Source: Candidatus Moranbacteria bacterium RIFCSPHIGHO2_01_FULL_55_24 (GTDB taxonomy: Bacteria; Patescibacteriota; Minisyncoccia; Moranbacterales; UBA1568). Taken from it: a stretch of DNA of 64,000 nucleotides. The notes beneath the pieces were generated by a model. That model had not been told where the DNA came from. It saw only the letters and a program-made list of their open reading frames with translations, and searched no databases. Shown piece after piece: positions 6,688-31,333 of this stretch (positions are counted from its first letter, which is position 1; every line of letters starts with the position of its first letter). Where the stretch lies: positions 23,581 through 87,580 of the forward strand of contig MFRW01000005.1 in NCBI GenBank assembly GCA_001786575.1. The letters run 5' to 3'. The translations under genes and the position numbers were made by a program.

Positions 6688-8895
6688 ATGACCATTTTCG
6701 AAAATAAAAAGAAAAGGAACGGAGTTCTCGCGCTAACGCTTGCTTTGATATTCTTTGCAGGCGTTTTTGTATTTTTTGGAGCAGGAATAGTACATGCTGA
6801 ATCAGGATCGGTGGGGTATAACTCTGCTGTGCAACTTGGAGAGGCGGCAGCGAGCAATAGCGGAGGGGGCATGTTTGGATGGATAAGAGATGGCGTGATC
6901 TATGCTTTTAAAACCGTTCTTTACTGGGTTTTTCAATTGATGGGATGGGGGGTGTCCGTGGCGGTCACAATCTTCGGTTGGGCGATCAATCCGGAATACG
7001 TCTCCGGCCCGAACGGTTTCTTCAATCTGCCGGCAGTATATGACATGTGGAAATTCGTGCGAGATTTCCTGAACCTCTTCTTTATTCTCGCGCTCCTTTT
7101 CGCGGCCTTCGCAACGATTTTCCAGATAGACAAGTACAGCTACAAGAAGATCCTCTTGAAACTCGTTATCGCAGCGCTCATGGTGAACTTCAGTTTCCCT
7201 ATCTCCCGAGCGCTCATCGATGTGACGAATGTCCCGATGTATTTTTTCGCGAATTCTTTGATAGCGGATACCAATAATCCGAGCGCAGCTTTTGGGTCAG
7301 CGTTAAGCGCTTCGAAATTAGAGAATATTTTAGTTCCGCCAGCAGCCCAAGATGATCTGGACAAGATTGATACGTCACGATTGCTCGCAGCAATCGTGTT
7401 CATGTTTCTGTTCGCAGTCACGCTTCTGGTGCTGGCTGTGCAGTTTATCATCCGTCTCATCGCGCTTATCATTCTCGTTATTCTTTCGCCGATCGGGTTC
7501 GTGATGCCGGCTGTTCCGGGACTCCAGAAGTATGGAGGGCAATGGTGGGATAATTTCCTGAAGTATGCATTCTTCGGCCCGGCGGCGATGTTCATGCTGG
7601 TGCTTGCGACTCACTTCTTTGATGCTATCGGCGGAGCGAATAGCGGCACGTATAAGAACTTTCAGGCGGCAAGCCAGACTTCTGCTGCTGTCAACAGTGA
7701 CTTCATCGCTTCCATGGCGATGTTCTCCATCCCGATCGTGATGCTCTGGTTCACTATCGGTATTTCCGGGAAATTCGCTATTGCTGGCGCATCGGCCTCT
7801 ACCGCTTGGGGATACAAGGCAGGCAATTGGGGCAAGCGAAAATTATATGACAACCGCATAGGCCGGGGATTGTACCGTGGCGGAAAGAAGGCTGTTAGCG
7901 AAGGGAAGATCGCCGGCTTTGACTACGGGAACAAGAGGCTGGGCAAATATCTGTCGGGCAACTATTGGAAGCAGCCGAGCAAGATTGAAGCTGGTATTGC
8001 CGGCGGTGTCTACGGAGGCAAGGCCGGTGCTCGCCAGGAAATCGATAACGAAAGACATAAAGCCGTACTTAAAAGGGCGAAAGAGATTAAGGAAAGCAAT
8101 GAGAGCAATGAAACGAATAGGATCGGTCTCAAATCTTCGAGTCTGGTCGAAAGACAGGCTCGCGCCCGGGCTTTGGCCGAGGCTGGAGCCATCAAGACTC
8201 CGGAACTTCTCCTCCAGGCTCTCGAAGCCAATAAGGATAATCAGGGAATTGTCGATAAGGAACTGCATGAGTTCGTGCAAGACAAGGCTCATTCCGATGC
8301 CTGGGACGGCGTATCCGACAGGTACAAGAAAGATCCGGAATTCAAGCAGAAATACGATGCAATGGTTGAGAATCCTTCTATGTATCTGCGGGATGAAAAA
8401 ACCGGAAAATATGTCGATCATAATGGCAAAGAAGTTGATGCGGAGAAGAGAGTCGCTAGCAGCGCGCTGGAAGGATTCTATAGCAAGATCAAGAAAGAAG
8501 GCGAACTTCAGGTACGCGTGGATTATGATGCCCAGCAGTTTATGAAGGCAGGCAAGTCCGAGAGTGAAGCCAAGAGCCTGGCGTATGAGAAGCACATCGC
8601 GAAATTGAGCGCTGATGACTTGGCAAAGCAGGGAAGCATACTGTCTGTCCTGAAGAAGATGGATGATAAGGGTGAGCCCAATAAGAATTATGATCCGGAG
8701 CTTGTCGACTACTTCAAAGGTAAAACCAAGGATGACCCGCAGTACTACCAGGAGGCTCTGAAGAAGATGAAGAAGGGGAGCCGTGAAATTTGGCGGCAAG
8801 CGATCGATGGAGTTCAAAAAGAACAAAAGGAGGGACTAAAAGAAGGGTCGCGCGAATGGGCAGAGGCTGAATGGAAAAAGAAGCAAGGGGCTTAA
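6688..8895 (+). CDS. VirB6/TrbL-like polytopic membrane protein with long charged C-terminal coiled-coil extension (PrgH/TcpH-like)
   Basis: ATG at 6688 with signal/anchor MTIFENKKKRNGVLALTLALIFFAGVFVFFGAG. At least 6 predicted TM helices (FLNLFFILALLFAAFATIF, LLKLVIAALMVNFSF, LLAAIVFMFLFAVTLLVLAVQFIIRLIALIILVILSPIGFVMPA, YAFFGPAAMFMLVLATHFF, MAMFSIPIVMLWFTIGISG). About 350 aa of K/E-rich hydrophilic tail. Extended -10 TGGTATACT lies just upstream (6633-6641). Confidence 0.6.
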   Translation: MTIFENKKKRNGVLALTLALIFFAGVFVFFGAGIVHAESGSVGYNSAVQLGEAAASNSGGGMFGWIRDGVIYAFKTVLYWVFQLMGWGVSVAVTIFGWAINPEYVSGPNGFFNLPAVYDMWKFVRDFLNLFFILALLFAAFATIFQIDKYSYKKILLKLVIAALMVNFSFPISRALIDVTNVPMYFFANSLIADTNNPSAAFGSALSASKLENILVPPAAQDDLDKIDTSRLLAAIVFMFLFAVTLLVLAVQFIIRLIALIILVILSPIGFVMPAVPGLQKYGGQWWDNFLKYAFFGPAAMFMLVLATHFFDAIGGANSGTYKNFQAASQTSAAVNSDFIASMAMFSIPIVMLWFTIGISGKFAIAGASASTAWGYKAGNWGKRKLYDNRIGRGLYRGGKKAVSEGKIAGFDYGNKRLGKYLSGNYWKQPSKIEAGIAGGVYGGKAGARQEIDNERHKAVLKRAKEIKESNESNETNRIGLKSSSLVERQARARALAEAGAIKTPELLLQALEANKDNQGIVDKELHEFVQDKAHSDAWDGVSDRYKKDPEFKQKYDAMVENPSMYLRDEKTGKYVDHNGKEVDAEKRVASSALEGFYSKIKKEGELQVRVDYDAQQFMKAGKSESEAKSLAYEKHIAKLSADDLAKQGSILSVLKKMDDKGEPNKNYDPELVDYFKGKTKDDPQYYQEALKKMKKGSREIWRQAIDGVQKEQKEGLKEGSREWAEAEWKKKQGA

Positions 8896-8913: not shown

Positions 8914-10104
8914 ATGGGAGGAAACAAAATAACAAAACGGATTTACTATCCCCTTCTCTCTTCAGAATCTCTGTCGGGAGGGGTTCAGGCTACGGAAGAG
9001 ATGTTGTCCGTATGGGATGCGTTCGATAAGATTGCTCCTGAAAAGCAGGATGTTTTGACGAGCGAAGAAATGCCTCAAAGAATCTCTGATTTTCAGGGCC
9101 AGCTGGGCGTGAGCGACCAGGAAATAGAGAAGTTGAGCATTCTGATCCGCAAGTATTTTTTCGGGACGTTGGATGGAGCGCAGTTTTCCGGAGAAGTTCG
9201 GACTCTTTTCGGCCAAAAAACAGAAGCGGAAAAAGAGAATGCTATAAAATATATCCAAAAAGAAATTTTGGAACTGAAACCGAAACCGAAAATTGTCGAG
9301 AAGGAAAACTTGCAAGAAACCCCGCAGAATAATTCCGTAGTGATATACCCACTTCTCCAAGCGCTTTCCAAATATGAAGGGCTTGGCAACCAGATGGTGA
9401 CGAACGAGCGCATTCACATCAAATCCCAGCCGGAGCCGGTCCGCCCGTCGCTTTTCAATTGGCTCAAATGCTACCGCGATGAGCTCGGTATCGGCCAGCA
9501 CAACAGCGTGCAGCGCGGGCAGTTCCTCTTCCGTTCCGAGAACGGCCGCCGCTTGAATCCCGAGGAGCGCGAGCGTATCAATCTGATACTGAAGTCTGTC
9601 GAAGAGAATTTCCCGCTCCAGATCGATGCACGCCGGCAGGAAATCATCTTCCCGAAGTTCGAGTTCGAGTCGGTCTCGGAGCGCCCGGCCCAGGAATCGA
9701 GAGACGCCTCTCCTCGGATAGAGCTCGCTTTCGGCGGGGCGACCTTCGCCAAAGGCCCGAGTTTCGATGCGCATGGAGAGAATGCAGAGAAAGCACCGGC
9801 ACCGCTTCCTCCTCGGGAAACAAAGAGCTCTGTACCGAACGGCAACCGGTTCACCGTTACGCGCGAGGCTCCGATGGGGAAGCTCCTCGGAGTGAAAGCT
9901 TTCCAAGAGACGGAGGAATCCCCAGCCGGAACCATGAGTTTCTCGTCGAGCCATACGCTCCCGGCAGAACAGGAAGAAAAAGTGCAAGCGACGGGTCAGA
10001 ATCAGGGAGCGAAATTGAAGCCACGGGAGATCAACCCCTTCCATATCCGCCCAGTCAGCCTAGGAGAGGAAAAGAAAAGCCGTAAAGAAACCTCACGCCT
10101 ATGA
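8914..10104 (+). CDS. hypothetical protein in T4SS-like operon
   Basis: ATG at 8914. Protein-like K/E-rich composition, unlike the R/L-rich antisense ORF 8962-10044. Its stop TGA overlaps the next start (ATGA at 10101). Confidence 0.5.
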   Translation: MGGNKITKRIYYPLLSSESLSGGVQATEEMLSVWDAFDKIAPEKQDVLTSEEMPQRISDFQGQLGVSDQEIEKLSILIRKYFFGTLDGAQFSGEVRTLFGQKTEAEKENAIKYIQKEILELKPKPKIVEKENLQETPQNNSVVIYPLLQALSKYEGLGNQMVTNERIHIKSQPEPVRPSLFNWLKCYRDELGIGQHNSVQRGQFLFRSENGRRLNPEERERINLILKSVEENFPLQIDARRQEIIFPKFEFESVSERPAQESRDASPRIELAFGGATFAKGPSFDAHGENAEKAPAPLPPRETKSSVPNGNRFTVTREAPMGKLLGVKAFQETEESPAGTMSFSSSHTLPAEQEEKVQATGQNQGAKLKPREINPFHIRPVSLGEEKKSRKETSRL

Positions 10105-10511
10105 TGTTCAATGTTCCGCAATTCATCGATGTCGAAGACAAGATCGCCGGTCCGCTTACCTGGCGCCAGATCCTCTGGATGATCGGGATGGGCGCGACGC
10201 TCCTCACGTTCTACAACCTTTTCGATAGCACGCTCTTCTTCATCATCTCTGTTCCGACGGTGCTTCTCTTCGCGGCTTTCGCATTCTATCGGCCCAATGG
10301 CATGTCGATGACCGCATTCTTCCTTCACGCGGTATTTTTCTTCTTCCGGCCGAAGGTTTCCGTGTGGGAGAGACCCGCGACTGTCCGGCGGATGCCGCAA
10401 GCGCCGAAGACATCGGAAAACGGGACCCAAGCGCCGCCAGCCGCGAAAGATTTGAGCGAAGATCGGCTGCACGAGTTGGCAAAAATCCTCGATCGGCATG
10501 GAAGAGTATGA
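10101..10511 (+). CDS. PrgI/VirB3-like small membrane protein (two TM helices) immediately upstream of VirB4
   Basis: Two TM helices (ILWMIGMGATLLTFYNLF; FFIISVPTVLLFAAFAFY). Size and position match VirB3/PrgI analogs. Translationally coupled to the upstream gene. Confidence 0.5.
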   Translation: MMFNVPQFIDVEDKIAGPLTWRQILWMIGMGATLLTFYNLFDSTLFFIISVPTVLLFAAFAFYRPNGMSMTAFFLHAVFFFFRPKVSVWERPATVRRMPQAPKTSENGTQAPPAAKDLSEDRLHELAKILDRHGRV

Positions 10512-10543: not shown

Positions 10544-11224
10544 ATGGAATTCCTCAAACCAAAACAAAAAGCTGGCGCATCCAGCACGCAGCGCTACGTT
10601 GACGTCGAAGAAATCCGCGACGGCATCATCGTGCTCAAAAGCGGAGCGCTCCGTTCGGTGCTTCTCGTCTCTTCGCTCAATTTCGATCTCAAGTCGAGCG
10701 AGGAGCAGGATGCGATTATCAGCCAGTACCAAGCTTTTCTGAATTCGCTCGACTTCCCGATCCAGATCGTTGCGAGCTCGCGACGCTTCAATGTGGAGCC
10801 GTATCTGGAGCTCTTGAACGACAAAGAGGCCGTCCAGGAAAACGAGCTTTTGCGTTTCCAAATCGCGGAATACAAGAATTTCATCAAGAATCTGACGGAT
10901 GTCTCGAACATCATGTCCAAGTATTTCTATGTCGTCGTGCCGTTCTCGCCGTCGGAAGATGAGAGGAGCAGCTTCCTCGGGAAGCTGACAGGAATCTTCA
11001 ATCCGCAGAAAACCGTGAATCTCCACGGAGAGCTTTTCGAGACCTATCGGAGCCAGCTCTTCCAGCGTGTCGAACAGGTGACAGCAGCGCTTTCGGGTAC
11101 CGGAGTGCGGGCGACAGCACTCACGACCGAAGAGATCATCGAACTCCTTTATAACAGCTACAATCCATCGCTCTTCGCCACATCGATCATCAAGAACGTC
11201 GATGCGCTGGAACTGATAAAATAA
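10544..11224 (+). CDS. VirB4/TrbE/CagE family N-terminal domain (split from the ATPase domain by an in-frame TAA)
   Basis: RYVDVEEIRDGIIVLKSGALRSVLLVSSLNFDLKSSEEQDAIISQYQAFLNSLDFPIQIV matches the VirB4 N-terminal region. Same reading frame as 11231-13078, with a single TAA at 11222-11224. Confidence 0.6.
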   Translation: MEFLKPKQKAGASSTQRYVDVEEIRDGIIVLKSGALRSVLLVSSLNFDLKSSEEQDAIISQYQAFLNSLDFPIQIVASSRRFNVEPYLELLNDKEAVQENELLRFQIAEYKNFIKNLTDVSNIMSKYFYVVVPFSPSEDERSSFLGKLTGIFNPQKTVNLHGELFETYRSQLFQRVEQVTAALSGTGVRATALTTEEIIELLYNSYNPSLFATSIIKNVDALELIK

Positions 11225-11230
11225 ACACCC

Positions 11231-13078
11231 ATGGAGCCAGGAATCGTATTCACCGCCAAGGAAGAAGAGAAGCCCCCAAGCGACAAGAAGGGCTTGTTCC
11301 ATGCGGAAAAAGCGAGCGAGAGCGATCTCCTCTACCAGAAAGGCTTGGCGACGATCCGGGATCTCATCGCGCCGCCGGCGATCAAGATCACGCCGAACAC
11401 CATGCAGATCGGCGAAGTGGTGTCGCGCACCTTTTTCGTCATCGCGTACCCGCGCTACTTGAGCACCAACTGGTTTTCGCCGATCATCAACATCGACTTC
11501 CCGATGGACATCTCTCTCTTCATCCATCCGATCGATACGGCCGAGATCTTAAAGAACCTGCGCAAATCCGCGACCCAGGTGCAGTCGCAGATCCACATCG
11601 AGGCGGAGGGGGGCAAGATCCGCAACCCGGTCCTCGAAACCGCTCTCGAAGATATCGAAGGACTGCGGGACAAGCTCCAGCAGGGAACGGAAAAATTCTT
11701 CCGGTTCGGCCTCTACATCACGCTCTATGGAGCCGATGAGAAAGACTTAAACGAGAAGAGCCAGGCGATCGAGGCGCTTCTCGAAGCCCAGCTCGTCTAT
11801 ACCAAGCCGGCCGTCCTGCGGATGGACCAGGGATTCGCGGCGACGCGCCCGCTCGCCAACGATGTCTTGGATGTGGCAAACAACCTGAACACCGAGCCGC
11901 TTTCCACGACCTTTCCGTTCGTCTCCTCGGACCTTTCCTCGAACCAGGGCATCCTCTACGGCATCAACCGGCACAACAACAGCCTGGTCTTGTATGACCG
12001 TTTCAATCTGGAGAATGCCAACATGGTCGTGTTCGCCAAGTCCGGTGCCGGTAAGAGCTATATGGTGAAGCTCGAAGTGCTGCGTTCGATGATGTTCGGG
12101 ACGAGCGTTATCATCATCGACCCGGAAAACGAATACAAGCATCTCTGCGAGGCGGTCGGCGGCACGTTCCTCAAGATCTCGCTCAATTCCGAAGCGCGTC
12201 TGAACCCGTTCGATCTTCCGAAGCGCGTGGACGATGAGGACGGCGAGAGCGTGTTTCGGAGCAGCGTGGCGAATCTCATCGGCCTGCTCCACCTCATGCT
12301 CGGGACGGTCACACCGGAAGAAGACTCGATCCTCGACCGCGCCATCCGCGAGACCTATGCGCTCCGCGATATCACCGAGCACAGCGACTACCAGGGCCTG
12401 ACGCCCGAGGCGTTTCCTACGATGTCGGACCTGTACCAGGTACTCCAGAATATGGACGGTGCAGAATCGCTTGCCATGCGGCTCGAGCGCTATACCGAAG
12501 GAATCTTCGGCGGGTTCCTCAACCAACAGACCAATGTGTCTACCGAGAATCAGCTGATCGTTTTCAACATCCGCGACTTGGAGGACGAGCTCCGGCCGAT
12601 CGCCATGTACATCGTGCTTCAGTTCATCTGGAATGAGATCCGCTCGCAGATGAAGAAGCGCCTCGTCGTGGTGGATGAGGCCTGGGTCATGATGCAGAAC
12701 GAAGATGCGGCTTCGTTCCTCTTCGGAATCGCGAAGCGCTGCCGCAAATACTATGCGGGCCTGACCACGATTACCCAGGATATCAGCGACTTCATGGCAT
12801 CCCGCTACGGCAAGCCGATCATCACGAACTCATCGCTCCAGCTCCTCCTGCGCCAGTCGCCGGCGACTATCGATGCGGTGTCCGAGACCTTCTATCTGAC
12901 CGATCACGAGAAATTCCTGCTCCTGGAGAGCAACGTCGGAGAGGGGATATTCTTCGCCGGGACCAAGCATGCCGCGATCAAGGTGATCGCTTCCTATAGC
13001 GAAGACCAGATCATCACTTCCGACCCGCGCCAGCTCTTGGAAATCGAGGAAGCGAAGCGGGATTTCGGGTCTTCATGA
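11231..13078 (+). CDS. VirB4/TraC-type T4SS ATPase (middle and C-terminal ATPase domains)
   Basis: Walker A VVFAKSGAGKSYMVK. Walker B LVVVDEAWVMM. VirB4 middle-domain region IKITPNTMQIGEVVSRTFFVIAYPRYLSTNWFSPIINIDFPMDISLFIHP. Combined with the upstream fragment the length is about 843 aa, typical for VirB4. Confidence 0.85.
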   Translation: MEPGIVFTAKEEEKPPSDKKGLFHAEKASESDLLYQKGLATIRDLIAPPAIKITPNTMQIGEVVSRTFFVIAYPRYLSTNWFSPIINIDFPMDISLFIHPIDTAEILKNLRKSATQVQSQIHIEAEGGKIRNPVLETALEDIEGLRDKLQQGTEKFFRFGLYITLYGADEKDLNEKSQAIEALLEAQLVYTKPAVLRMDQGFAATRPLANDVLDVANNLNTEPLSTTFPFVSSDLSSNQGILYGINRHNNSLVLYDRFNLENANMVVFAKSGAGKSYMVKLEVLRSMMFGTSVIIIDPENEYKHLCEAVGGTFLKISLNSEARLNPFDLPKRVDDEDGESVFRSSVANLIGLLHLMLGTVTPEEDSILDRAIRETYALRDITEHSDYQGLTPEAFPTMSDLYQVLQNMDGAESLAMRLERYTEGIFGGFLNQQTNVSTENQLIVFNIRDLEDELRPIAMYIVLQFIWNEIRSQMKKRLVVVDEAWVMMQNEDAASFLFGIAKRCRKYYAGLTTITQDISDFMASRYGKPIITNSSLQLLLRQSPATIDAVSETFYLTDHEKFLLLESNVGEGIFFAGTKHAAIKVIASYSEDQIITSDPRQLLEIEEAKRDFGSS

Positions 13079-13662: not shown

Positions 13663-14319
13663 ATGAGAACATTCTCGCTCGCAGAAAAAAAGTTTATCGG
13701 GACCAGCGCCCTGATTCTTTTCTGTCTCCTTTTCTTCGCTTTTTTCGAGGAGAGTTCGCAGTTGAGCGGGGTGCTCCAGGGTTTCATTATCGGTATCGTT
13801 TTCTTCTTGGTCATTCCGCTCGCGTACTGCAGGATGGTCTTGCGGGAGCCGCTTTCCAATATGGGGTGGCAAAGAGGAGAAGGTATCTTCGGGTTCTTTT
13901 GGCCGCTTCTCTCTGTCGCGATCGCCTTTGCGGGCATTTTCTTCCTTACGTGGCAGTTCCCGGCATTCGCAGAGGCGTATACGTTCCCGGTCGCGGTGGA
14001 GACGAACTTCCTCTGGTTCGTGCTTTATGAGCTCTTCATGGTCCCGTTCATCGTCCTCATCTACGAGTCATTCTTCCGCGGATTGGTGCAGATGCTCTGG
14101 CTCCAAGCGCTCGGCGCATGGGCGATTCTGGTACAGGCGGCGCTTTTCACAGGCCTGGTCTATGTGAGCGACGGCTTCACCTGGGAGACGCTCCCGCTTC
14201 TCGTCTTTGCGCCTTTTGCGGGGTATATCGCCTATAAGACGCACTCGCTCTGGTATGCATTTCTCGGAAGCTGGACATTTCTCTTTCTGACTGACGTACT
14301 CTTTTTGATTCTCCGTTAG
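13663..14319 (+). CDS. CPBP/Abi-like polytopic membrane protein (degenerate CAAX-protease motifs)
   Basis: 6-7 TM helices. IYESFFRGLVQ resembles CPBP motif 1 (EExxxR). Later motifs are not canonical. Preceded by extended -10 TGGTATACT (13644-13652). Confidence 0.4.
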   Translation: MRTFSLAEKKFIGTSALILFCLLFFAFFEESSQLSGVLQGFIIGIVFFLVIPLAYCRMVLREPLSNMGWQRGEGIFGFFWPLLSVAIAFAGIFFLTWQFPAFAEAYTFPVAVETNFLWFVLYELFMVPFIVLIYESFFRGLVQMLWLQALGAWAILVQAALFTGLVYVSDGFTWETLPLLVFAPFAGYIAYKTHSLWYAFLGSWTFLFLTDVLFLILR

Positions 14320-14336: not shown

Positions 14337-17129
14337 ATGTTTACATTCGGAAAACGAAAAAAGACCCTTCTCGCTATCCTCATGGTCGGCCAGATGTTCA
14401 TAGGGAGCGCCCTGCCGGCTGCAGCGCTCTTCGGCGGGATCAAGATCCCGTCGGCATCCAAGGTGGTCTCGGACATCGAGAAGCGCTATCATATCGATCT
14501 TGAGAATGTCCAAGATCAGGGAGAGTTGTTCAATGTCCTTTCGAATAAACAGCCTGCTCCGGAGGTCTCTTTATTTTTCTCGCCGTCCGACCCTCGCCTC
14601 GGGGAGAAGATTTCTGCCAAGGCTTTTCCGGTTTATTTTATCAACAATGAAGAATCTCTCTATTACACATGGTACCTGAAGCGCGCTGATTGCGGACTGA
14701 CGAACTCCCCAAGCGCTGCGGTCAGGAGCGCTTGCGATCGGAATAATGATAACCGCATCACCGTAGAAGACTGGAAGATCGAGGCGGTGCGTATCATCGC
14801 CCAGAACGGCTATGACAATACCGCTACCAGCTACTCCTCGGACTCCGATGATGACGGCTATCGTGCGCGTTTCGGCGGCGATAACAGGGCGAATACGCCG
14901 GATTATTGCTACATCCACGACAATTCTTCGGGGAAGAATTACGAGCTGACAGACAGTTCTTCCGACACGAGTTTCTCCTGTCCGGCCGGGACAACTGCAG
15001 TGTGCGTGATCGAGGATGAAGGAGTCGAGCCGGGAGAGATCCCAGAGGGCACATTGGGAACCAGCAGCGCAAGCGATACGTTCGTTGTCGGCAATACCGA
15101 TGAGTGCAGCGTTTCGGGGCTTCCGGCCTGTACAACGAGCGGAACGCCTTCTTGCGGAACAGGAACGCCGCGCTGCGTCGCGAATCCGGAAAGCAATACT
15201 ACTTCCTGCGGTACGGCTTTGAGCACCTGCAGCACGACTTCTTCCGGTAATGCAGATCCTTCCTGCAAGCACCTTTTCCCGAAGGCTTCCGGCGCGACGA
15301 CTGGCGACGGGTCATTCAATGCGAGTGAAGAACGCTTCTGGGGAACCGACCCGAATGATCCGGACACAGCCGACAACGGCAACAAGGACGAAGCGAATGT
15401 CACCGGTCTCGGCCGTTCTACCTTCACCTGGAACTATGCGACAGGCGACCAGGTGGGCGTAGCGGTAGAAGGCACCTCGATGATCGCTACCAAGCATGAC
15501 AATTCTTCGGTGATGATCATGTGGGCCTTCGCCAAGAAGGACTGCCCAGTAGAGGATACCGGATCATATACCCAGTCCATCAAGAATTACAGCGTCGAGA
15601 TAGAGACGGCCGACATGGATCTCAATAATTGTCTGGAACGCAACCTCGTCGACCCGGCCCAAGGCGGCCAGGCGACGAATCTGGAAGTGGAAGTTTCGGC
15701 AACCCCGAATGAGCCGGTGAACGATGAGACCGGGGACGAGTCGGGCGATCTCGTCATCGCCCAGGCGAGCGTGAGCAATGGAGTCCAGGATTTGTCGAGC
15801 ATACTCTTCGATTGGAAGGTAGATATCAGCAATAATATCCAATTCAGTTCCTCGATCGGGCCAACCGCCGATGTCACTGCGGATCTTCGCAGTCTCTCGC
15901 TTTTGAGCAACGCGAAGGGGAATGCTCTGGACGCTGTCCGGCTGAAGCTTGATATTCCGCGGAGCGCGAGCTTGGGCGGCCGGCCGCTTTCGAGCTATCT
16001 TTCCGGAGATGTGGGGTATCTCCGCTTCACTTCCCGGGTGAGCGAGAATTTCTCGCAGGGAATCGCTCGCCAGGGGAGGAGCGATGTGATCGTGAAGTTC
16101 ACTTCCACCCAGAGGAAGATCGTCGCCTATAAGGCAGAACCGGCTCTCGTAGCAGGAAAGATGCAAGTGAGACTCCCTGCCAATGCCGGAGCCATCTGCA
16201 ATGATGATGCCTTGGATCGCAATGTCTGCCGTGTCGTCGAGAACGAAATCGTCGGCTTGAGCGTCGATGAGAATGATCTCACGAATTTCAATTGGACAAT
16301 CAATGGATCGCCGCTCCGCTGTTCCGCAAGCGCCGTATCGCCGGACTGCACCGACGGCCAGCAGAATGCGGTGAATTTCTTCCCGGTCACGGGGAACGTG
16401 GGCGATACCTACACGGTCACGCTCACGGCAAACGACGTGACGAATGGCAAGACCGTCACGCTCTCGCGCTCATTCAATATCGTCTCGCCGCAAGTACGGA
16501 TCGTTTCCGGCGATGAGAACGCCGCGTGGCCGAAATTCCTCGGCCAGTACAGGGATGTGACGGGGACAGCGACGGATTGCCCCGGAGGCCTCTGCGATGA
16601 TGTGAGCAAGAATGTCTTCGAAGCATTCTCCGGCGACAGCCTCACGCTCCAGGCGAAGTTTATCCCGAGCTTCCTCGCGAGTTCCGCCGAAAGGCAGTGG
16701 ACCATCGATAACGAAAACGTATCCGAGACCAGCCCGAACGAACTTGTCTTCCCGGCCGATAAAGCGCCCTTCATGGTCTACAATATCGGGCTCGCGGCCC
16801 GCGTGATGCAGTCCAACGATACCCGGAGGGCTCTCCTGGATATCTGGAATATTTCCCCGCTCGATTCGCCAGAAGTGCATTTCTCTTCAGGGATACAGAT
16901 CGAGCTCCAGGATCCGACTCTTGTCCGCGGCGATGAAACCCCGGTTCAGAAGTATCTGGCCGCTCTGGTATCGTATGTCCCGGCATCGCTTCTTTTCTCC
17001 TTCCGTATCCTTCTAAGCGGAGCGCTCATCCTCTTCGCCACCGGATTCGTGATGGCCATCCTGCCAGGCGGAAGAGCGGCCGAGGCGATTGCTCCAAGTC
17101 CGGGCAGATCCGGCAGAAACGATTGGTAA
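14337..17129 (+). CDS. large secreted Cys-rich/Ser-Thr-rich surface protein with C-terminal membrane anchor (candidate adhesin)
   Basis: Signal peptide MFTFGKRKKTLLAILMVGQMFIGSALPAAALFGG. Cys-rich block (CSVSGLPACTTSGTPSCGTGTPRCVANPESNTTSCGTALSTCSTTSSGNADPSC). Hydrophobic C-terminus (LLFSFRILLSGALILFATGFVMAIL). Confidence 0.6.
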   Translation: MFTFGKRKKTLLAILMVGQMFIGSALPAAALFGGIKIPSASKVVSDIEKRYHIDLENVQDQGELFNVLSNKQPAPEVSLFFSPSDPRLGEKISAKAFPVYFINNEESLYYTWYLKRADCGLTNSPSAAVRSACDRNNDNRITVEDWKIEAVRIIAQNGYDNTATSYSSDSDDDGYRARFGGDNRANTPDYCYIHDNSSGKNYELTDSSSDTSFSCPAGTTAVCVIEDEGVEPGEIPEGTLGTSSASDTFVVGNTDECSVSGLPACTTSGTPSCGTGTPRCVANPESNTTSCGTALSTCSTTSSGNADPSCKHLFPKASGATTGDGSFNASEERFWGTDPNDPDTADNGNKDEANVTGLGRSTFTWNYATGDQVGVAVEGTSMIATKHDNSSVMIMWAFAKKDCPVEDTGSYTQSIKNYSVEIETADMDLNNCLERNLVDPAQGGQATNLEVEVSATPNEPVNDETGDESGDLVIAQASVSNGVQDLSSILFDWKVDISNNIQFSSSIGPTADVTADLRSLSLLSNAKGNALDAVRLKLDIPRSASLGGRPLSSYLSGDVGYLRFTSRVSENFSQGIARQGRSDVIVKFTSTQRKIVAYKAEPALVAGKMQVRLPANAGAICNDDALDRNVCRVVENEIVGLSVDENDLTNFNWTINGSPLRCSASAVSPDCTDGQQNAVNFFPVTGNVGDTYTVTLTANDVTNGKTVTLSRSFNIVSPQVRIVSGDENAAWPKFLGQYRDVTGTATDCPGGLCDDVSKNVFEAFSGDSLTLQAKFIPSFLASSAERQWTIDNENVSETSPNELVFPADKAPFMVYNIGLAARVMQSNDTRRALLDIWNISPLDSPEVHFSSGIQIELQDPTLVRGDETPVQKYLAALVSYVPASLLFSFRILLSGALILFATGFVMAILPGGRAAEAIAPSPGRSGRNDW

Positions 17130-26127: not shown

Positions 26128-26159
26128 GGGCCAGGAGGAGACTCCTGGCCCTCTTTTTT
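26128..26159 (+). terminator. rho-independent terminator after typA, overlapping an extended -10 promoter (TGATACAAT at 26172-26180)
   Basis: 9-bp stem GGGCCAGGA/TCCTGGCCC, loop GGAGAC, then TCTTTTTTG. Directly followed by TGaTACAAT. Confidence 0.6.
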
Positions 26160-26204
26160 GCTGTTTTTCTGTGATACAATAGAGAAAACAAAAACAGGCT
26201 CCAT

Positions 26205-27290
26205 ATGTATCAGAAAACTGCAAGAATCTTCTTTCTCGGGATGTTCTTGTTTTCTTTTTTCTCGCCGCTGCCGGCGGACGGCGCGGGTTTGGTGCCCTGC
26301 GGCCAGAATGTGAACGATCCTGCCACCGATATCGATGAGTCGGCAAAATGCACCATGTGCCATCTCGTGGTGGCCGGAAACGGGATCATCAACTGGCTCA
26401 TGGGGATCATGACGATCCTCGCGATCGCGATCGTCTTCGCTATGGCGATCTATTACATCATCTCGGCCGGGAACCAGGGGATGATGGAGACCGCCAAAAG
26501 CGGCATCAAGGCGGCACTCATCGGGTTTGCGGTCATGCTTTCGGCCTGGCTTATCGTCAATACCACGCTCCGGATCTTCGGCGCTACTATTCCGGGACTT
26601 ACTAGCTCTAGCGGAGGCTTCACCTTCACTTGCGATATCTCGTCTTCTGCCGGCACATCCAGCGCAGGCGCCGGAGCAGGTGCCGGAGCAGGCGTCGGAG
26701 CAGGTGCGCCAGCCGGAGGCGGTGCGGCCTGCGAGAACATCGATGCTGCCAAGGCGCGGCTTTCGGCAGGCGGTACGGTCTGCAACGGGACCGGTTCCTG
26801 CCCGTCTTGCAATACCCAGCCGTTCGATTCCTTGATCGAGAGGTATGCCAAGCAGTACAAAGTCTCTCCTGGACTGATCCGCGGAGTGATCGCTCGGGAA
26901 TCAAGCTGTGATCGGATTAAGGAGAAGAAGGAGAGCGACGGCAGTTCAAGCTGCGGGCTGATGCAGGTGAATACGCGTTCTTCTACATACTCCTGCGCCC
27001 AATTGAAAGATTCAGCCACGGGGATCATGGAGGGGACGCGTATCCTGGCAGCGGCTTACTCTACAGCACAAAGCCTGAAAGCCAAGTATGGCAATAGGGT
27101 GACCGTGAACGAACTCGCAGCAGCGATTCATAACGCGGGAGCGGGAGAGAGCGCGGCGAGCGTCGACTGTTCGTCGGCGAGCGGTTGGCCCACTATCCCG
27201 AAATGGGGATGCCCTATCAATCCAGGGAACGCTCAATTCAATGCGTGCGCCATCAGGGATTACGCTTGCAATGTCGGAGCGTGTAAATAG
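26205..27290 (+). CDS. fusion protein: signal peptide + VirB2/TrbC-like pilin domain + Gly/Ala linker + VirB1-like SLT lytic transglycosylase
   Basis: N-terminal part has two TM helices around YIISAGNQG, the motif shared with the downstream pilins. GAGAGAGAGVGAGA linker. SLT motifs: ARESSCD (catalytic E-S), GLMQVN, IHNAGAGE (AYNAG-like). Confidence 0.65.
   Translation: MYQKTARIFFLGMFLFSFFSPLPADGAGLVPCGQNVNDPATDIDESAKCTMCHLVVAGNGIINWLMGIMTILAIAIVFAMAIYYIISAGNQGMMETAKSGIKAALIGFAVMLSAWLIVNTTLRIFGATIPGLTSSSGGFTFTCDISSSAGTSSAGAGAGAGAGVGAGAPAGGGAACENIDAAKARLSAGGTVCNGTGSCPSCNTQPFDSLIERYAKQYKVSPGLIRGVIARESSCDRIKEKKESDGSSSCGLMQVNTRSSTYSCAQLKDSATGIMEGTRILAAAYSTAQSLKAKYGNRVTVNELAAAIHNAGAGESAASVDCSSASGWPTIPKWGCPINPGNAQFNACAIRDYACNVGACK
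26663..26710 (+). repeat. in-frame tandem 12-nt repeat (GGAGCAGGNGNC x3-4) encoding the GAGAGAGVGAGA linker
   Basis: gcaggcgcc ggagcaggtgcc ggagcaggcgtc ggagcaggtgcg. Confidence 0.5.
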
Positions 27291-27302
27291 CTTTTAGGAA
27301 CG

Positions 27303-27587
27303 ATGATGTTTCACGCAGCACTTGTCTCTGTGGCCCATGCCGGAGCGATCACGGACGCGACACCGGTCGCCGGCATCCTTCAGAATGTTTTGGAATTTCT
27401 GTTGTCAATCGTTGGCGTGCTTGGTATAATCGGGTTAGTTATCGCTGGATTCCTGTATCTGTCGGCCGCCGGGAATATGAGGCAGACGAATCTTGCCAAG
27501 ACGATGACAGTCGCTTCGCTCATCGGCATCATAATCGCCTTGGGAGCGCTGGTCATCGTTTCACAGTTAAGCAAATTCTTCAGTTAA
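27303..27587 (+). CDS. VirB2/TrbC-like pilin-family small membrane protein
   Basis: Two TM helices flanking FLYLSAAGNMRQTNLAKTMT. C-terminal VIVSQLSKFF is shared with the last pilin. Confidence 0.6.
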   Translation: MMFHAALVSVAHAGAITDATPVAGILQNVLEFLLSIVGVLGIIGLVIAGFLYLSAAGNMRQTNLAKTMTVASLIGIIIALGALVIVSQLSKFFS

Positions 27588-27658
27588 GAGCAGAACGTAA
27601 AAATAAAAACAGAGCGCCTCGCAGGGAGGCCTCGTACATGGAAGGAGGTGAGAGAAGT

Positions 27659-28027
27659 ATGACACAAATCAAAAAAGCTTTGTACGGCGCATACGCTACC
27701 GCGTTGGCTTTGTCTCCTTTGGCGGCATCCGCACAATGGGGCCAGGGCATCAGTAATGCTGGCGAAGCAGATCTCCCGAGCGGAAGCATCATCGGTATCA
27801 TCGAACAGACCATGTACTGGCTTCTGGCCATCTTGGGTTTCATCGGTATTATCGGTTTCGTTATCGCTGGTATTCTCTATCTCACCGCAGCTGGCGATGA
27901 GAGCCAGATCGAGAAGGCCAAGAATGCTATGACGTATTCCATCATCGGCGTCATCGTCGCTCTGATCGGTTTCGTTATCATCCAGGCTGTCACGCAGTGG
28001 CTCGGTGGAGGAACCTCCAGTTTCTAA
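27659..28027 (+). CDS. VirB2/TrbC-like pilin-family small membrane protein
   Basis: Strong SD GGAGGTG 8 nt before the ATG at 27659. Signal peptide. ILYLTAAGDESQIEKAKNAMTYSIIGVIVALIGFVIIQAV. Confidence 0.6.
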   Translation: MTQIKKALYGAYATALALSPLAASAQWGQGISNAGEADLPSGSIIGIIEQTMYWLLAILGFIGIIGFVIAGILYLTAAGDESQIEKAKNAMTYSIIGVIVALIGFVIIQAVTQWLGGGTSSF

Positions 28028-28050
28028 GGACCACTTGTCCGGACCAAAGC

Positions 28051-28079
28051 AATCCGCCTGCAAGGCGGATTGTTTTTTT
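28051..28079 (+). terminator. rho-independent terminator
   Basis: Stem AATCCGCC/GGCGGATT with loop TGCAA, then GTTTTTTT. Confidence 0.55.
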
Positions 28080-28120
28080 ATGCGGAAAAGAGTAGTATGG
28101 AGGCAGTAATAAAAGGATTT

Positions 28121-28519
28121 ATGTCCAAAAAACAAATACAAAGAAGCCTTCTATCCGTATTCTCAATTCTCCTGTTCGCGGGCGCGGTGCCTGTCCTTCA
28201 GGCGGTGACCACTTGCCCCACAGGCTATAATTTAGTTTCCGGAGTCTGTATTCCGAGTAACACCGGATTGCCTGACACGCCCGTCATCGACATTATCGGC
28301 GAGTTCATGTTCTGGCTCCTTTCCATCTTCGGAATGCTGGCGGTCATCGCTTTCGTGATTTCCGGTATCCAGTACATCACTTCGGCCGGCGATGAGGGCC
28401 AGGCCGAGACAGCCAAGAACAACATGAAGTACGCTATCATCGGCGTCATCGTCGCATTGAGCGGACTCGTTATCATCCAGGCTGTAGAGGGGGTACTTAC
28501 TGCGACGCCTGGTTTCTAA
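28121..28519 (+). CDS. VirB2/TrbC-like pilin-family protein with Cys-containing N-terminal segment
   Basis: ATG at 28121 with signal peptide MSKKQIQRSLLSVFSILLFAGAVPVLQAV. TTCPTGYNLVSGVCIP. IQYITSAGDEGQAETAKNNMKYAIIGVIVALSGLVIIQAV. Confidence 0.6.
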   Translation: MSKKQIQRSLLSVFSILLFAGAVPVLQAVTTCPTGYNLVSGVCIPSNTGLPDTPVIDIIGEFMFWLLSIFGMLAVIAFVISGIQYITSAGDEGQAETAKNNMKYAIIGVIVALSGLVIIQAVEGVLTATPGF

Positions 28520-28528
28520 TACGGGACT

Positions 28529-29434
28529 ATGCAAAACACAAAAAAATTCTCACGGAACCTCCTAGCGGCAATATTGTTTTTCTTGGTGAGCGCAGGATTC
28601 GCCGGCATAGCGGAGGCCCAGCAGCCAGGCACAACAGCCACTTGTCGAGCAGTAAGCGGGACCTGTATTCCTGGTAGTCCCCATCCGCAATATTCTAGTT
28701 GCGGTCATGATTGGGGGCGGCTGGATTGTGCGGAGAGTTACAAGTGCTGCACGCTGAAAACCAGTACGACATCTGCCAACACTAACGCTAACGCCAATAC
28801 CACAGGAGGCACTACTTCTCCGACAGGTGGCGGAGGAGGCGCTCCCAAAGCAGGCAACGGCGGCGGAGCAACTGCACCGAATGCTCTCGGCGGCGGAAAT
28901 GCCACATCGACATCGATAAACATTACGAATCCCCTCAAGTTCGAAACAGTCGAGGAAGTGGTGACGAGCCTTCTGGGGACGCTCCAGGGCATCGTCGTGA
29001 TTCTCGCCTTGGTATTCATCGTCATCGGTGCGCTTCTCTATATCACTTCGGCTGGGGATGAGGGCCGGATAAAGACCGCCAAAGCGGCTATCACGGCGGC
29101 GCTTATCGGTCTGGCTATCGCGCTGGCCGCGCCATCGTTCTTGAAGGAAATAGGAGGAATCCTGGGCTGGGGCGCAGTCGATAGCAGCGCCGCGGCGGGA
29201 GCGCAGACGCTCTCGGAGATCGCGATGAATGTCTTGAATTTCCTCCTCTCGATTGTCGGCGTACTGGCGATCATCATGCTCATCGTAGGCGGCATCATGT
29301 ACCTCACCGCTGCCGGAGACGAGGACCGGGTCGATACCGGCAAGAACATCGTGAAGTATGCGATCATCGGTATTATCGTGGCTTTCGCCTCTCTCGTGAT
29401 TGTCAGCCAATTGGCAAAATTCTTCGCACCGTAA
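28529..29434 (+). CDS. secreted protein with Cys-rich N-domain, Gly/Thr/Asn-rich linker and two tandem VirB2/TrbC-like pilin domains
   Basis: Signal peptide. ATCRAVSGTCIPGSPHPQYSSCGHDWGRLDCAESYKCC. Two motif copies: LLYITSAGDEGRIKTAKAAITAALIGLAIALAA and IMYLTAAGDEDRVDTGKNIVKYAIIGIIVAFASLVIVSQLAKFF. Confidence 0.6.
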   Translation: MQNTKKFSRNLLAAILFFLVSAGFAGIAEAQQPGTTATCRAVSGTCIPGSPHPQYSSCGHDWGRLDCAESYKCCTLKTSTTSANTNANANTTGGTTSPTGGGGGAPKAGNGGGATAPNALGGGNATSTSINITNPLKFETVEEVVTSLLGTLQGIVVILALVFIVIGALLYITSAGDEGRIKTAKAAITAALIGLAIALAAPSFLKEIGGILGWGAVDSSAAAGAQTLSEIAMNVLNFLLSIVGVLAIIMLIVGGIMYLTAAGDEDRVDTGKNIVKYAIIGIIVAFASLVIVSQLAKFFAP

Positions 29435-29460
29435 AATTTGAGACGAGCGCAAAGAAAAAA

Positions 29461-29490
29461 GCGGTGAGTACAGATGTACTCGCCGCTTTT
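29461..29490 (+). terminator. rho-independent terminator at end of pilin array
   Basis: Stem GCGGTGAGTAC/GTACTCGCCGC (one mismatch), loop AGAT, then TTTT. Confidence 0.55.
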
Positions 29491-29509: not shown

Positions 29510-30103
29510 CTAATCCGCTTTCTGTGTGATCCTCATCACGATTTCTCCCTGGTTGCCCTCGAAGGCTCCGGGACTCGGGACGACATTGATGCTTATCCCG
29601 ATGCGCGATGGTTCATCCAGCACGAAGCTTCTTTTTCTTGGATCGAAGGCTTCGCCATGGTCGATACGCGCTATAGGCGCTGCCACGAGACGCATCTTCC
29701 TCACCGGTGCCTGATCGAGGAATTGCTTCTCGTACGGCTGGCCAGACCAGCTCTCGAGACTCATCCCTTGAGGAGGGATGGGCTGGGAGCTGATGATCCG
29801 GGTATGGTTATCATCCCAGATTGCCAGCTGTATATTTGCGCTCTGGAGCTTGAGCTTATAGGTTCCGGGCTCCAATTCTTCGGACATGCACCACCCGGCG
29901 CTTTTCTTCCAGAGTGTTTCATTCGGACTGCACGTGATGGTAGCGACCGTTTGGTAGCTAGTATCACTTTCCGAAGAAATCTTGGAAGCGATGCTTTGTA
30001 TGAGCGCGATCGCGATTATGCCGATAATGAACCACTTCAGGACGCCAACTTCGTTGAATTTCCCAGTGACTAGGGTAGCCACGGATCCTTTCGGGTTAGA
30101 CAT
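29510..30103 (-). CDS. hypothetical membrane-anchored protein (downstream partner of the SPFH gene)
   Basis: TM anchor WFIIGIIAIALIQSIASKI. Its start overlaps the stop of the upstream SPFH gene (ATGA). The + strand ORF 29474-30073 is judged to be its antisense shadow. Confidence 0.45.
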   Translation of the reverse strand: MSNPKGSVATLVTGKFNEVGVLKWFIIGIIAIALIQSIASKISSESDTSYQTVATITCSPNETLWKKSAGWCMSEELEPGTYKLKLQSANIQLAIWDDNHTRIISSQPIPPQGMSLESWSGQPYEKQFLDQAPVRKMRLVAAPIARIDHGEAFDPRKRSFVLDEPSRIGISINVVPSPGAFEGNQGEIVMRITQKAD

Positions 30104-31173
30104 TATTTTTTCTCCTGTTTCTGTCGCCGACGCTGGCGCAGATTCTTCTGAAGTTGATCCTCATCAGTTTTCTGTTCCTGCGTCAGATTGTTCATGAGTC
30201 CTGCAGCAGCGCCTGCTTGAGCAAGCGGGCTGCCGCCTTCCAGTGTGACAACGGTTCTCTCGCCTCGAGATGCCTGGACAGCAGCCAAAGCTTCTTGAAC
30301 CGAAAGATTTCCGCCACCTGCTTCCATAAGGTGCTTGACCTGTCTTGCAAGGGTAGCAGTATCGGCCATATCTGAATCAGCCTCTGCCTTTTCCTCTGCG
30401 ATCTTGGTTTTTGCAGCTTCCAATTTTTCAGGCAAGCGGATGCCGGCAATCTGGATATCACAGATGAGGATACCTGTTCCGGTTTTTTCCATCTGCTTTT
30501 GTAATTTCTCTTGCAAGTTATTCGCGAAGTCCTGGCGCTTTTTGGCTAAGTCATCATACGGCATATCTGCCACGTCGTCTCGGATCTGATCTTCAGCCTC
30601 GAGTTGGAGCAGCTTGACCGGATCCTCCACATTGAGGAAAAGCGAAATACTCTCCACTTTGTAGGTCAGGCTGATATTGACGGTAATCGGCAGGCCTTCC
30701 TTATCGAGTACTTCTGAAGGGTTGATATCCAAGTTTCTCTTTTCGATAGAAACTTCGAGGACTTTTCCAAGCGGTTCCGGCCAATGCCAGCACCACCCTT
30801 CGCGGAAGATCTTCTTCTCTTCGCGGCGCCCGAGGAAAATCGGTATGCCGCGGTGCGCGATCTTTACTATCCGGAGTCCGCGCCGGAAAAAGTTTGAACC
30901 GATAAACAAACCGAAGAGAGCGACAAAAATATACTGGAGGCTCATGCCGAATAGCTTGAGATCGTGCAGTCCGCCGGTCAAGAGGGAAATGATTCCATTG
31001 ACGAGGAGGGCGACCGCAATCGCTACACCGAGCGACCACCAGAAACCGATAAGCAGATTGTCTTCTTCTGCAACTTGGATAACAATCGCTCGTTCCTCCC
31101 CGATATTCGAGGCTCTACGAATGAGAGCATCATCGGACAAAGGAGGGGTCACGGGATTTTCTGTAGGTGACAT
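30103..31173 (-). CDS. SPFH/band-7 (stomatin/prohibitin/HflK-like) domain membrane protein
   Basis: TM anchor (LLIGFWWSLGVAIAVALLVNGIISLL) followed by an SPFH core and a charged coiled-coil tail. ATG at 31173 preceded by AAGGAGA. Confidence 0.7.
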   Translation of the reverse strand: MSPTENPVTPPLSDDALIRRASNIGEERAIVIQVAEEDNLLIGFWWSLGVAIAVALLVNGIISLLTGGLHDLKLFGMSLQYIFVALFGLFIGSNFFRRGLRIVKIAHRGIPIFLGRREEKKIFREGWCWHWPEPLGKVLEVSIEKRNLDINPSEVLDKEGLPITVNISLTYKVESISLFLNVEDPVKLLQLEAEDQIRDDVADMPYDDLAKKRQDFANNLQEKLQKQMEKTGTGILICDIQIAGIRLPEKLEAAKTKIAEEKAEADSDMADTATLARQVKHLMEAGGGNLSVQEALAAVQASRGERTVVTLEGGSPLAQAGAAAGLMNNLTQEQKTDEDQLQKNLRQRRRQKQEKK

Positions 31174-31333
31174 TCGAATTCTCCTTGAAAAGTTGTTAAG
31201 GTGCCTATTTTGGACGGCTTTTGGCCGCGTCACAGATCTAGGCACCGCCTAAACTTGTAACGTGTCACTATAGCATAAAAACGAATAAAAGTCAATAATG
31301 GGCTTGTATAAGCTAAAAAGGCGGCAGAGCGGT

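Follow-up and report, generated by a model that had tools for sequence, protein, structure and literature searches.

A tandem array of five pilin-type genes lies on the forward strand of contig MFRW01000005.1 from RIFCSPHIGHO2_01_FULL_55_24, a Candidatus Moranbacteria bacterium, at positions 26205-29434 of the 64-kb stretch of DNA analysed here, which is referred to below as the window. Translation and motif searching revealed five consecutive open reading frames (ORFs), termed g1 to g5 (Table 1), that encode six two-helix hairpins. This confirms the initial annotation of the same DNA, which had described five tandem genes with six pilin-type domains and a conserved loop motif, and the individual motifs were recovered exactly as it had quoted them; the five corresponding GenBank records (OGI21915-21919) are, every one, labelled ‘hypothetical’. 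From g1 to the second hairpin of g5 the loops read YIISAGNQ, YLSAAGNM, YLTAAGDE, YITSAGDE, YITSAGDE and YLTAAGDE, giving the consensus Y-x-x-(A/S)-A-G-(D/N). The hairpins, of 77-80 residues each, align internally without gaps at pairwise identities of 21-56%, and residues L16, I19, Y35, A39, G40, K49, I57 and G58 are invariant in all six, with Y35, A39, G40 and K49 falling in the inter-helix loop. Hydropathy analysis placed two strongly hydrophobic stretches of 19-25 residues on either side of each loop. All five proteins open with a signal-peptide-like sequence, read from the presence of AxA-type cleavage motifs, and they show the arrangement by which VirB2/TrbC proteins are recognised, namely a signal peptide ahead of two hydrophobic helices that have a short polar loop between them. 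A common ending of the second helix, proposed earlier as II(Q/S)(A/Q)(V/L), fits only loosely: VIIQAV is found in g3 and g4 and VIVSQL in g2 and the second hairpin of g5, with nothing alike in g1 or the first hairpin of g5. When a hidden Markov model (HMM) built from the six hairpins was run against the window, no further hairpin copies were found.

The start of g3 is likely to be position 27659, as it is preceded by the Shine-Dalgarno sequence GGAGGTGA and yields a 122-aa product that equals OGI21917.1 exactly. For g4, the JGI/ENA call starts at 28121 (132 aa) and the GenBank call at 28097 (140 aa); an alternative TTG at 28070 sits within a terminator hairpin, and the start is therefore one of the two called positions. 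The GenBank version of g5 (OGI21919.1) begins at an internal start and has only 157 aa, without the signal peptide, the Cys-rich ectodomain or the linker, all of which are retained by g5 orthologues and by the full 301-aa ENA call. The paralogues do carry different extensions, as had been stated, but the extension of g1 is a C-terminal SLT lytic transglycosylase domain that had been missed, and the shared SG(V/T)CIP element attributed to three paralogues occurs in two (SGVCIP in g4 and SGTCIP in g5), the cysteines of g1 being different (C32, C49 and C52).

Table 1. Array genes, expression signals and secretion-system genes in the window
Feature	Position	Strand	Description
Terminator of upstream typA/bipA	26128..26159	+	10-bp stem with 8 GC pairs, folding free energy (dG) -23.6, z -5.0, followed by TCTTTTTT
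Predicted extended -10 promoter-like box	26172..26180	+	TGaTACAAT, 25 nt upstream of the g1 ATG
g1	26205..27290	+	361 aa, OGI21915.1; pilin hairpin fused to SLT
g2	27303..27587	+	94 aa, OGI21916.1; minimal pilin, short signal peptide and single hairpin
Promoter-like element within g2	27402..27430	+	TTGTCA, 17-nt spacer, TG-g-TATAAT; 11/12 matches plus TG
g3	27659..28027	+	122 aa, OGI21917.1; signal peptide (..LAASA, then QW), short conserved ectodomain, hairpin
Terminator after g3	28049..28079	+	hairpin 28049-28073 and T-run, dG -17.8, z -5.7
g4	28121..28519	+	132 aa; signal peptide, small Cys-pair ectodomain (TTCPTGYNLVSGVCIP), hairpin
g5	28529..29434	+	301 aa; signal peptide, Cys-rich ectodomain, T/G/N-rich linker, two tandem hairpins
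Bidirectional array-end terminator	29457..29490	both	15-bp stem, dG -24.4, z -7.3, A-run before and T-run after
VirB6-like candidate	6622-8895		757 aa, six transmembrane (TM) segments
PrgI/VirB3-like	10101-10511	+	136 aa; PF12666 PrgI 47.6 bits
TrsD-like	10544-11224	+	226 aa; NF041427 E 2.6e-8, below cutoff; also matches the N-terminal part of VirB4 models
VirB4-like ATPase, CD1110 family	11231-13078	+	615 aa; NF045971 363 bits (cutoff 325); TraG P-loop and AAA_10 matches
CAAX/Rce1-like intramembrane protease	13663-14319		6 TM; two genes after virB4

Profile searches placed the array in a curated family of type IV secretion system (T4SS) pilins. Judged by the Pfam gathering cutoffs (26.6 bits for PF18895 T4SS_pilin, 27.9 for PF04956 TrbC/VirB2 and 21.3 for PF01464 SLT), PF18895 is passed by all five proteins, with 32.2 bits for g1, 30.0 for g2, 37.5 for g3, 44.7 for g4 and 78.0 for the two domains of g5 (E-values from 1e-7 to 6e-22), and because all five exceed the gathering score the similarity of the six hairpins is far above chance. 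PF04956 is passed narrowly by g2 (28.1 bits) and g5 (33.7 bits), with no match reported for g1, g3 and g4; the earlier designation as VirB2/TrbC-type pilin domains is in agreement with the PF18895 result and, in g2 and g5, with PF04956. The best NCBIfam family for the array is NF045849, the Mbov_0395 family pilin-like conjugal transfer protein of Mycoplasma integrative and conjugative elements (ICEs), whose cutoff of 40 bits is exceeded by g5 (46.5) and not reached by g4 (37.2), g3 (36.1), g2 (20.3) or g1 (18.0). A profile of the six hairpins, searched against 1.84 billion cluster representatives, recovered 63,647 matches at E<=1e-3 and 6,547 at E<=1e-10; the best 150 mostly carry two hairpins and some up to eight. 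Among such poly-pilins, P0050, P0053 and P0056 hold 4-8 tandem hairpins in a single polypeptide of 348-820 aa, an organisation that is awkward for a simple VirB2-type filament unless it is cleaved. The homologues of g3 number 758 at E<=1e-5, the best 120 of which are 57-77% identical and mostly 119-126 aa long, and relatives bear the NCBI name ‘pilin’. In the AlphaFold2 (AF2) model of g3, helices at residues 44-76 and 81-116 are joined by a loop at 77-80, with a block-mean predicted local distance difference test (pLDDT) score of 89-94 over residues 51-110; the modelled hairpin of g1 has helices at 50-86 and 91-126. When one hairpin was compared with plasmids by tblastn, only four weak matches were obtained, and two of these carry the annotation ‘pilin’ or ‘TrbC/VirB2 family protein’. 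On the Enterococcus mundtii plasmid pLDW-8 (107971-108258), a protein of the TrbC/VirB2 family is encoded in a Gram-positive pLS20-like conjugation module, beside genes for a sortase and isopeptide fimbrial protein, a VirD4-like protein and a pLS20_p028-family protein; VirB2-like hairpins are therefore not limited to diderm systems.

The first protein of the array, g1, joins a pilin hairpin to an enzyme. In order, it comprises a signal peptide, a Cys-containing ectodomain, the hairpin (aa 50-126), a disordered G/A/S-rich linker, the SLT domain (aa ~180-361; 26.1 bits to PF01464) and a Cys-rich C-terminus. The fusion is conserved, with about 36 of 49 homologous clusters covering at least 83% of the query, and across 19 homologues E232-S233 and C250-G251-L252-M253 are invariant or nearly so, the former including the catalytic Glu (E232) and the latter forming part of a CGLMQ motif. 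The SLT domain is modelled by AF2 with a pLDDT above 90, and Foldseek matched it at a probability of 1.00 to LtgA, MltE, Slt, MltF and g-type lysozymes; by its profile match, its catalytic Glu and the goose-lysozyme-like fold of the model, the C-terminal domain can be assigned to the SLT/family-1 (VirB1-like) enzymes. Since both termini of a pilin lie outside in the usual topology, the enzyme of g1 would face the cell wall. In the wider Paceibacteria, SLT orthologues from Nomurabacteria, Paceibacterota and mislabelled metagenome-assembled genomes (MAGs) (loci L016-L032) start with a two-TM hairpin and have no signal peptide; the pattern is TM, Y-R-M-E-A-S-E..K-S-N-E, TM, and PF18895 fails to recognise it (L023 reaches only 16.5 bits). 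These hairpins are possibly a very divergent pilin anchor.

Comparison was made across eight non-redundant related loci, the relatives coming from Moraniibacteriota MAGs. The order [pilin-SLT][short pilin][g3-type pilin], terminator, [1-4 single pilins][double pilin] is kept in all eight, and the flanking housekeeping context is likewise constant; the g1 proteins of the relatives are only 36-59% identical. Tables of best hits and a neighbour-joining tree built from 54 hairpins both show grouping by position in the array and not by genome. Clear one-to-one orthologues are found at positions 1, 3, 5 and 6, with identities of 0.5-0.8 as against 0.3-0.5 to the next-best paralogue (margins of 0.2-0.3), and every locus examined has a g2 orthologue as its second gene. 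As the tree rests on about 80 residues without bootstrap support, the assignment is less sure for positions 2 and 4. Duplications are restricted to the middle pilin types. It follows from the clustering by position that the paralogues are older than the split between genomes with g1 proteins this dissimilar, and the positional orthology favours a division of labour over a pool of interchangeable variants. The grouping thus speaks for paralogues that are ancient and each specialised. Some of the syntenic loci (L005-L008 and L011) come from third-party annotation (TPA) MAGs whose records name them ‘uncultured Bdellovibrionales bacterium’ or else ‘Candidatus Saccharibacteria’, and these taxonomic labels are probably wrong.

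The double pilin g5, whose hairpins span aa 137-216 and 224-301, is the last gene in every complete array compared. Its conserved parts are both hairpins and the linkers NPLxFxTVE and PSFLKEI..ILGW, and its N-terminal Cys-rich ectodomain is hypervariable, ranging from ~40 to ~150 residues with a varying count of Cys-rich modules. Middle pilins of the g4 type differ in copy number among genomes, giving arrays of 5-7 genes. As judged from the aligned sequences, variation is confined to the g5 Cys-rich ectodomain and the copy number of the middle genes. In the relative L001, a gene for a DsbD/CcdA-type thiol-disulfide transporter (6920-7678) lies a few genes upstream of the array; it may have a bearing on g1, g4 and g5, whose exposed parts contain many conserved cysteines.

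The array carries a set of expression signals that is in part shared by its relatives. It is set apart as a transcription unit of its own by the terminator of the upstream typA/bipA gene. The extended -10 box of the promoter that had been proposed for the locus can be read directly in the sequence (26172-26180), with no good -35 hexamer to accompany it; in L003, the relative that contains typA, the corresponding site reads TGGTATGAT. A second promoter-like element is found inside g2, ~230 nt upstream of the g3 start, and its register, spacer and TG are shared by all ten g2 orthologues; the other paralogues are without it at the equivalent register, the second hairpin of g5 encoding a near-identical peptide with different codons. 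In a codon alignment of the g2 orthologues, codons are fully invariant only under the hexamers (Leu TTG in 10/10, Ala GCT in 7/7 and Ile ATA in 10/10), whereas at other conserved residues the share of the commonest codon is 0.22-0.88. This invariance at synonymous sites is therefore read as DNA-level selection for an intragenic promoter. Together with the terminator after g3, the element would be expected to boost g3, its sequence matching a sigma-70-like consensus that is uncharacterised in the host phylum.

The genes had been described as individually punctuated by terminators. Both of the terminators quoted are real, as supported by the folding energies and z-scores of the hairpins at 28049-28073 and 29457-29490, but they are the only two, one after g3 and one after g5. 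A hairpin in the gap between g2 and g3 (27612-27633) was rejected as a plus-strand terminator, having no T-run and a z of -2.0, and it is terminator-like only on the minus strand. A strong hairpin with a T-run stands 3' of the g3-type gene in 8/8 non-redundant loci, with stem sequences that are unrelated to one another. When cross-checked with a terminator scan, the plus-strand site of L010 was confirmed, the hairpin of L011 was found with its tail on the opposite strand, and in L003 only a short minus-strand fragment of the hairpin was reported. The terminator that closes the array also ends a convergent gene (29510-30103, minus strand), and its minus-strand reading was found by the scan; such a terminator is present in the window, L001, L003 and L011, and none was reported by the script in the other four loci. 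Since a -10-like box follows the post-g3 terminator in most loci, g4 and g5 probably form a second unit. Differential expression of the paralogues, suggested previously, is plausible, and the conservation of these signals across relatives strengthens the idea.

The array belongs to a genome that encodes T4SS machinery close by. By its predicted gene content, the core in the window is a monoderm-type T4SS resembling the mating-pair formation (MPF) class MPF-FATA, with the components listed in Table 1. The gene map bears out the earlier description of a split locus, some 13 kb from the VirB4 cluster with cca, infB and typA between: 13.1 kb and ~10 genes separate the end of the VirB4 gene from the array, and the gap holds tRNAs, cca, infB, DUF4446, a methyltransferase, a solute-binding protein (SBP) and typA. 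The context of the array is chromosomal and vertically conserved, and phage genes are absent from it. The ORFs at 10544-11224 and 11231-13078 are separated by 6 nt, and a frameshifted VirB4 was considered; the first ORF matches TrsD (E 2.6e-8, below cutoff), in pGO1-type systems TrsD is known as a component in its own right (PMC12102498), and the split-VirB4 reading was rejected because the two ORFs correspond to the known arrangement of TrsD and TrsE. VirB4 is followed by a protein with 2-3 TM segments, the CAAX-type protease and a 930-aa protein (14337-17129); the C-terminal two-TM region of the last was inspected as a possible pilin hairpin and rejected, as the motif is absent. Precursors of pilins or poly-pilins could be substrates of the CAAX/Rce1-like protease. 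Just upstream of the membrane proteins of the T4SS, at 3617-6071, a tyrosine recombinase (minus strand) lies beside a LysM-LysM-CHAP peptidoglycan hydrolase, which is a second VirB1-like candidate, the CHAP type being typical of monoderm T4SSs. In a scan of larger ORFs from the window, which did not extend to every ORF, neither a relaxase nor a coupling protein turned up. After the array, two convergent genes on the minus strand (29510-31245) encode a 197-aa protein without a family and a 380-aa SPFH/Band-7 protein; in relatives the same place, before nusA, is taken by two minus-strand genes of 278-495 aa with no Pfam match on record. Further downstream, the minus-strand gene at 50398-52317 encodes a likely surface protein of 639 aa, which contains three Lamin-tail domains and one PKD domain and is unrelated to the array.

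Arrays of this kind are already in the literature. A survey of 3,035 Patescibacteria genomes with PF04956 and PF18895 (Quinonero-Coronel et al. 2025) found 383 assemblies to contain 441 arrays, each with 2-11 pilin genes, and, drawing a parallel to Bartonella and Anaplasma, proposed that they serve adaptation to different host strains (PMC12102498). Its dataset lists Candidatus Moranbacteria RIFCSPHIGHO2_01_FULL_54_31 as VirB4-positive. The present array falls within the definition of that survey (at least two pilin genes in tandem or with a one-gene gap), as it consists of five consecutive PF18895/PF04956 genes in a VirB4-positive genome. In Southlakia epibionticum, predicted pilins that are essential and stand in series within the T4SS cluster were described by Wang et al. 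2023 (PMC10633639). A 2025 review restates the pilin arrays, mentions no more than a ‘potential to elaborate conjugative pili’ and treats as an open question whether a monoderm T4SS builds a pilus (PMC12857230), and the function of the T4SS in epibiotic Patescibacteria has been called ‘completely unknown’ (PMC11665869). The array kind, including the idea of host-range or antigenic variation, is thus already published (PMC12102498, PMC10633639, PMC12857230), and its novelty was overestimated in the initial annotation. In term searches of the main text of these three papers and of the searchable library, neither pilin-SLT fusions nor double pilins came up, and positional orthology and the internal signals were likewise not mentioned. 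The survey also reported most VirB2-bearing genomes to be without VirB1 (PMC12102498); fusions such as g1 may have been overlooked in it, or tallied solely as pilins, and pilin-SLT fusions could explain why surveys find that most VirB2-bearing Patescibacteria ‘lack VirB1’.

On balance, the locus is probably the pilin module of a monoderm-type, MPF-FATA-like T4SS, with paralogues that are specialised subunits of one assembly. After cleavage of the signal peptide, each hairpin would be embedded in the membrane, its two ends facing outwards and its Y-x-x-A-G-D/N-E...K loop inwards, and the outer face would thereby carry the linkers, the Cys-rich modules and the SLT domain. The paralogues would then be specialised parts of a single assembly fed by the PrgI-TrsD-VirB4 machine. 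Its abundant shaft or core subunit would be g3, whose length is constant and which has a terminator of its own and an additional putative promoter; the g2-internal promoter-like element and the post-g3 terminator make g3 the likely major subunit. g1 would act as a VirB1 equivalent that is anchored by its pilin hairpin and cuts peptidoglycan at the site of assembly, and g4 and g5 would be minor subunits, made from a second, lower-level transcription unit and displaying variable, probably disulfide-bonded modules for host contact. Formation of a filament, the membrane topology, the abundance of g3 and the roles of g1 and of g4/g5 are all inferred. In the classical T4SS picture there is one pilin and a VirB5 tip. 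A bolder version of the proposal, a heteropolymeric and functionally differentiated VirB2-type structure in a bacterium described in the cited papers as monoderm, with g1 as a pilin-anchored peptidoglycan cutter that opens the wall where assembly takes place, the dosage of g3 hard-wired by its terminator and by the promoter within the g2 coding sequence, and g4/g5 as adhesin-bearing minor pilins that are covalently duplicated and carry fast-evolving disulfide-rich modules for host contact, is put forward tentatively and is rather unlikely. If true, T4SS pili would follow a division into major and minor pilins for which type IV pili and type II secretion system (T2SS) pseudopili are so far the only examples.

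Several observations weigh against a specialised pilin module. The tie to classical VirB2 is borderline at the sequence level. A profile comparison (hhalign) was made with an alignment of three Rhizobiaceae VirB2 proteins and one Acetobacter and one Enterococcus TrbC/VirB2-family protein, the VirB2 sequences coming from Ti/Ri and Sinorhizobium plasmids (the query used to retrieve them matched the database entry at 99%); it gave probabilities of 8% for the g3 family and 1.6% for the six hairpins, in a register that is topologically sensible and non-significant. A search of PDB sequences with the six-hairpin profile returned no match at E<=10, and fold searches, for which F TraA, T-pilus VirB2 and pKM101 TraM are the solved pilus subunits of reference, cannot discriminate a bare two-helix hairpin. 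No PF18895 protein is known to form a filament. A fusion of pilin and enzyme as long as 361 aa, like poly-pilins of up to eight hairpins, would be hard to fit into a VirB2-type lattice without processing. Hairpin conservation is no higher in g3 than in either hairpin of g5 (~0.65 each), and the roles suggested for the paralogues are inferred from conservation and from matches to promoter and terminator consensus in a phylum whose promoters are uncharacterised. Finally, in the Moranbacteria relatives the array is syntenic with cca-infB-SBP-(typA) and nusA, and not with virB4.

The strongest rival supposes that there is no pilus, and that the hairpins are integral-membrane channel or platform subunits of the T4SS that anchor the SLT domain and the Cys-rich modules at the secretion site. 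It is a serious possibility, albeit a doubtful one. A fusion such as g1 and proteins of 2-8 hairpins suit a membrane array better than a helical filament, and the TrbC/VirB2-family gene in the Enterococcus pLS20-like module, together with the homologous pilin-like protein of Mycoplasma ICEs, points the same way. Mycoplasma is wall-less. Monoderm conjugation systems are, moreover, generally without pili (PMC12102498, PMC10633639). Set against this, one small subunit has a conserved cassette for high expression, as is typical of structural proteins that polymerise, and the pilin annotation of the family is based on sequence, with two members above the TrbC/VirB2 model.

Another explanation takes the paralogues to be alternative major pilins whose diversity serves antigenic or host-range variation, as the initial annotation had suggested. 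The divergence of the paralogues (21-56% identity) does resemble that of published arrays, for which the mean identity is 25% and the maximum 54% (PMC12102498), Bartonella and Anaplasma provide precedents cited in the same survey, and the copy number of the middle genes and the g5 ectodomain do vary. The hairpins cluster by position, however, with one-to-one orthologues at positions 1, 3, 5 and 6, and the architecture is position-specific (enzyme fusion, minimal pilin, double pilin). No silent cassettes were seen, though no repeat search of the window was made, and the HMM found no extra hairpin copies. Antigenic or host-range variation is thus at odds with the hairpin cores, which have positional orthologues in relatives, the variation seen being that of the g5 ectodomain and the number of middle genes; as an account of the whole array it is improbable.

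A T4SS-independent envelope module, concerned with wall remodelling or adhesion and sharing the two-helix anchor, is more improbable still. The synteny with housekeeping genes in Moranbacteria would suit it, as would the wide occurrence in Paceibacteria of proteins with two TM segments and an SLT domain whose hairpin is unrecognisable as a pilin. The array is nevertheless only ~10 genes from virB4 here, pilin genes and VirB4 occur together in 1,948 assemblies and nearby in 1,135 (PMC12102498), and the S. epibionticum pilins lie within an essential T4SS cluster (PMC10633639). An unrelated two-TM family (holin or bacteriocin immunity), which the initial annotation had named as the outcome that would overturn a pilin assignment, shares only a generic small two-TM topology and has a negligible probability, because no such family was found in Pfam or NCBIfam at E<=1 or in PHROGs at E<=0.01, the matches being to curated pilin families instead, and the chromosomal, vertically conserved context is without phage genes.

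The T4SS and pilin array are essential for the epibiotic life of the one genetically tractable Patescibacterium. The locus described here leaves the category unchanged and gives it concrete, testable handles, of which g3, singled out by conserved transcription signals, is the best target for antibodies, tagging and cryo-electron tomography.

Among known systems, the array is closest to other Patescibacteria arrays, namely SEML1_0006-0019 of S. epibionticum ML1 and the ‘Sec-secreted array’ of Nanosynbacter lyticus TM7x, with which it shares the same family, tandem divergent paralogues, Sec signal peptides and a monoderm-type VirB4/TrsD/PrgI. As far as term searches of the main text of the papers show, it is unlike the published arrays in that 13 kb of housekeeping genes separate it from virB4, in having a pilin-SLT gene first and a double pilin last, and in its internal terminator and intragenic promoter. 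The VirB1-VirB2-VirB3 genes of Agrobacterium likewise encode a lytic transglycosylase beside the pilin (on Ti plasmids), and their pilin has a signal peptide and two helices with a short polar loop; here, by contrast, the transglycosylase is fused to the hairpin and is not a separate soluble protein, several specialised paralogues replace one pilin and VirB5, there is no sign of cyclisation, and the host is taken as monoderm on the authority of the cited papers. The likeness to the Mycoplasma ICE module is seen in g5, which scores above NF045849, and in the VirB4 and TrsD of the window, which match the VirB4 model of the same module (Mbov_0397); judged by the name of the model, the Mycoplasma protein is a conjugal-transfer protein of a mobile ICE, whereas the present five-gene array has a conserved chromosomal context. 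The VirB2 arrays of Bartonella and Anaplasma (as cited in PMC12102498) are also tandemly amplified, divergent virB2-type genes beside a T4SS. These have been read as antigenic or host-adaptation variants of one subunit, whereas the genes compared here are old positional orthologues with different architectures. Finally, type IV pili and T2SS pseudopili offer an analogy and not a homology: their fold and assembly ATPase are unrelated, but they too combine one abundant subunit with several specialised, low-abundance subunits, and it is the minor ones that bear the exposed variable modules.

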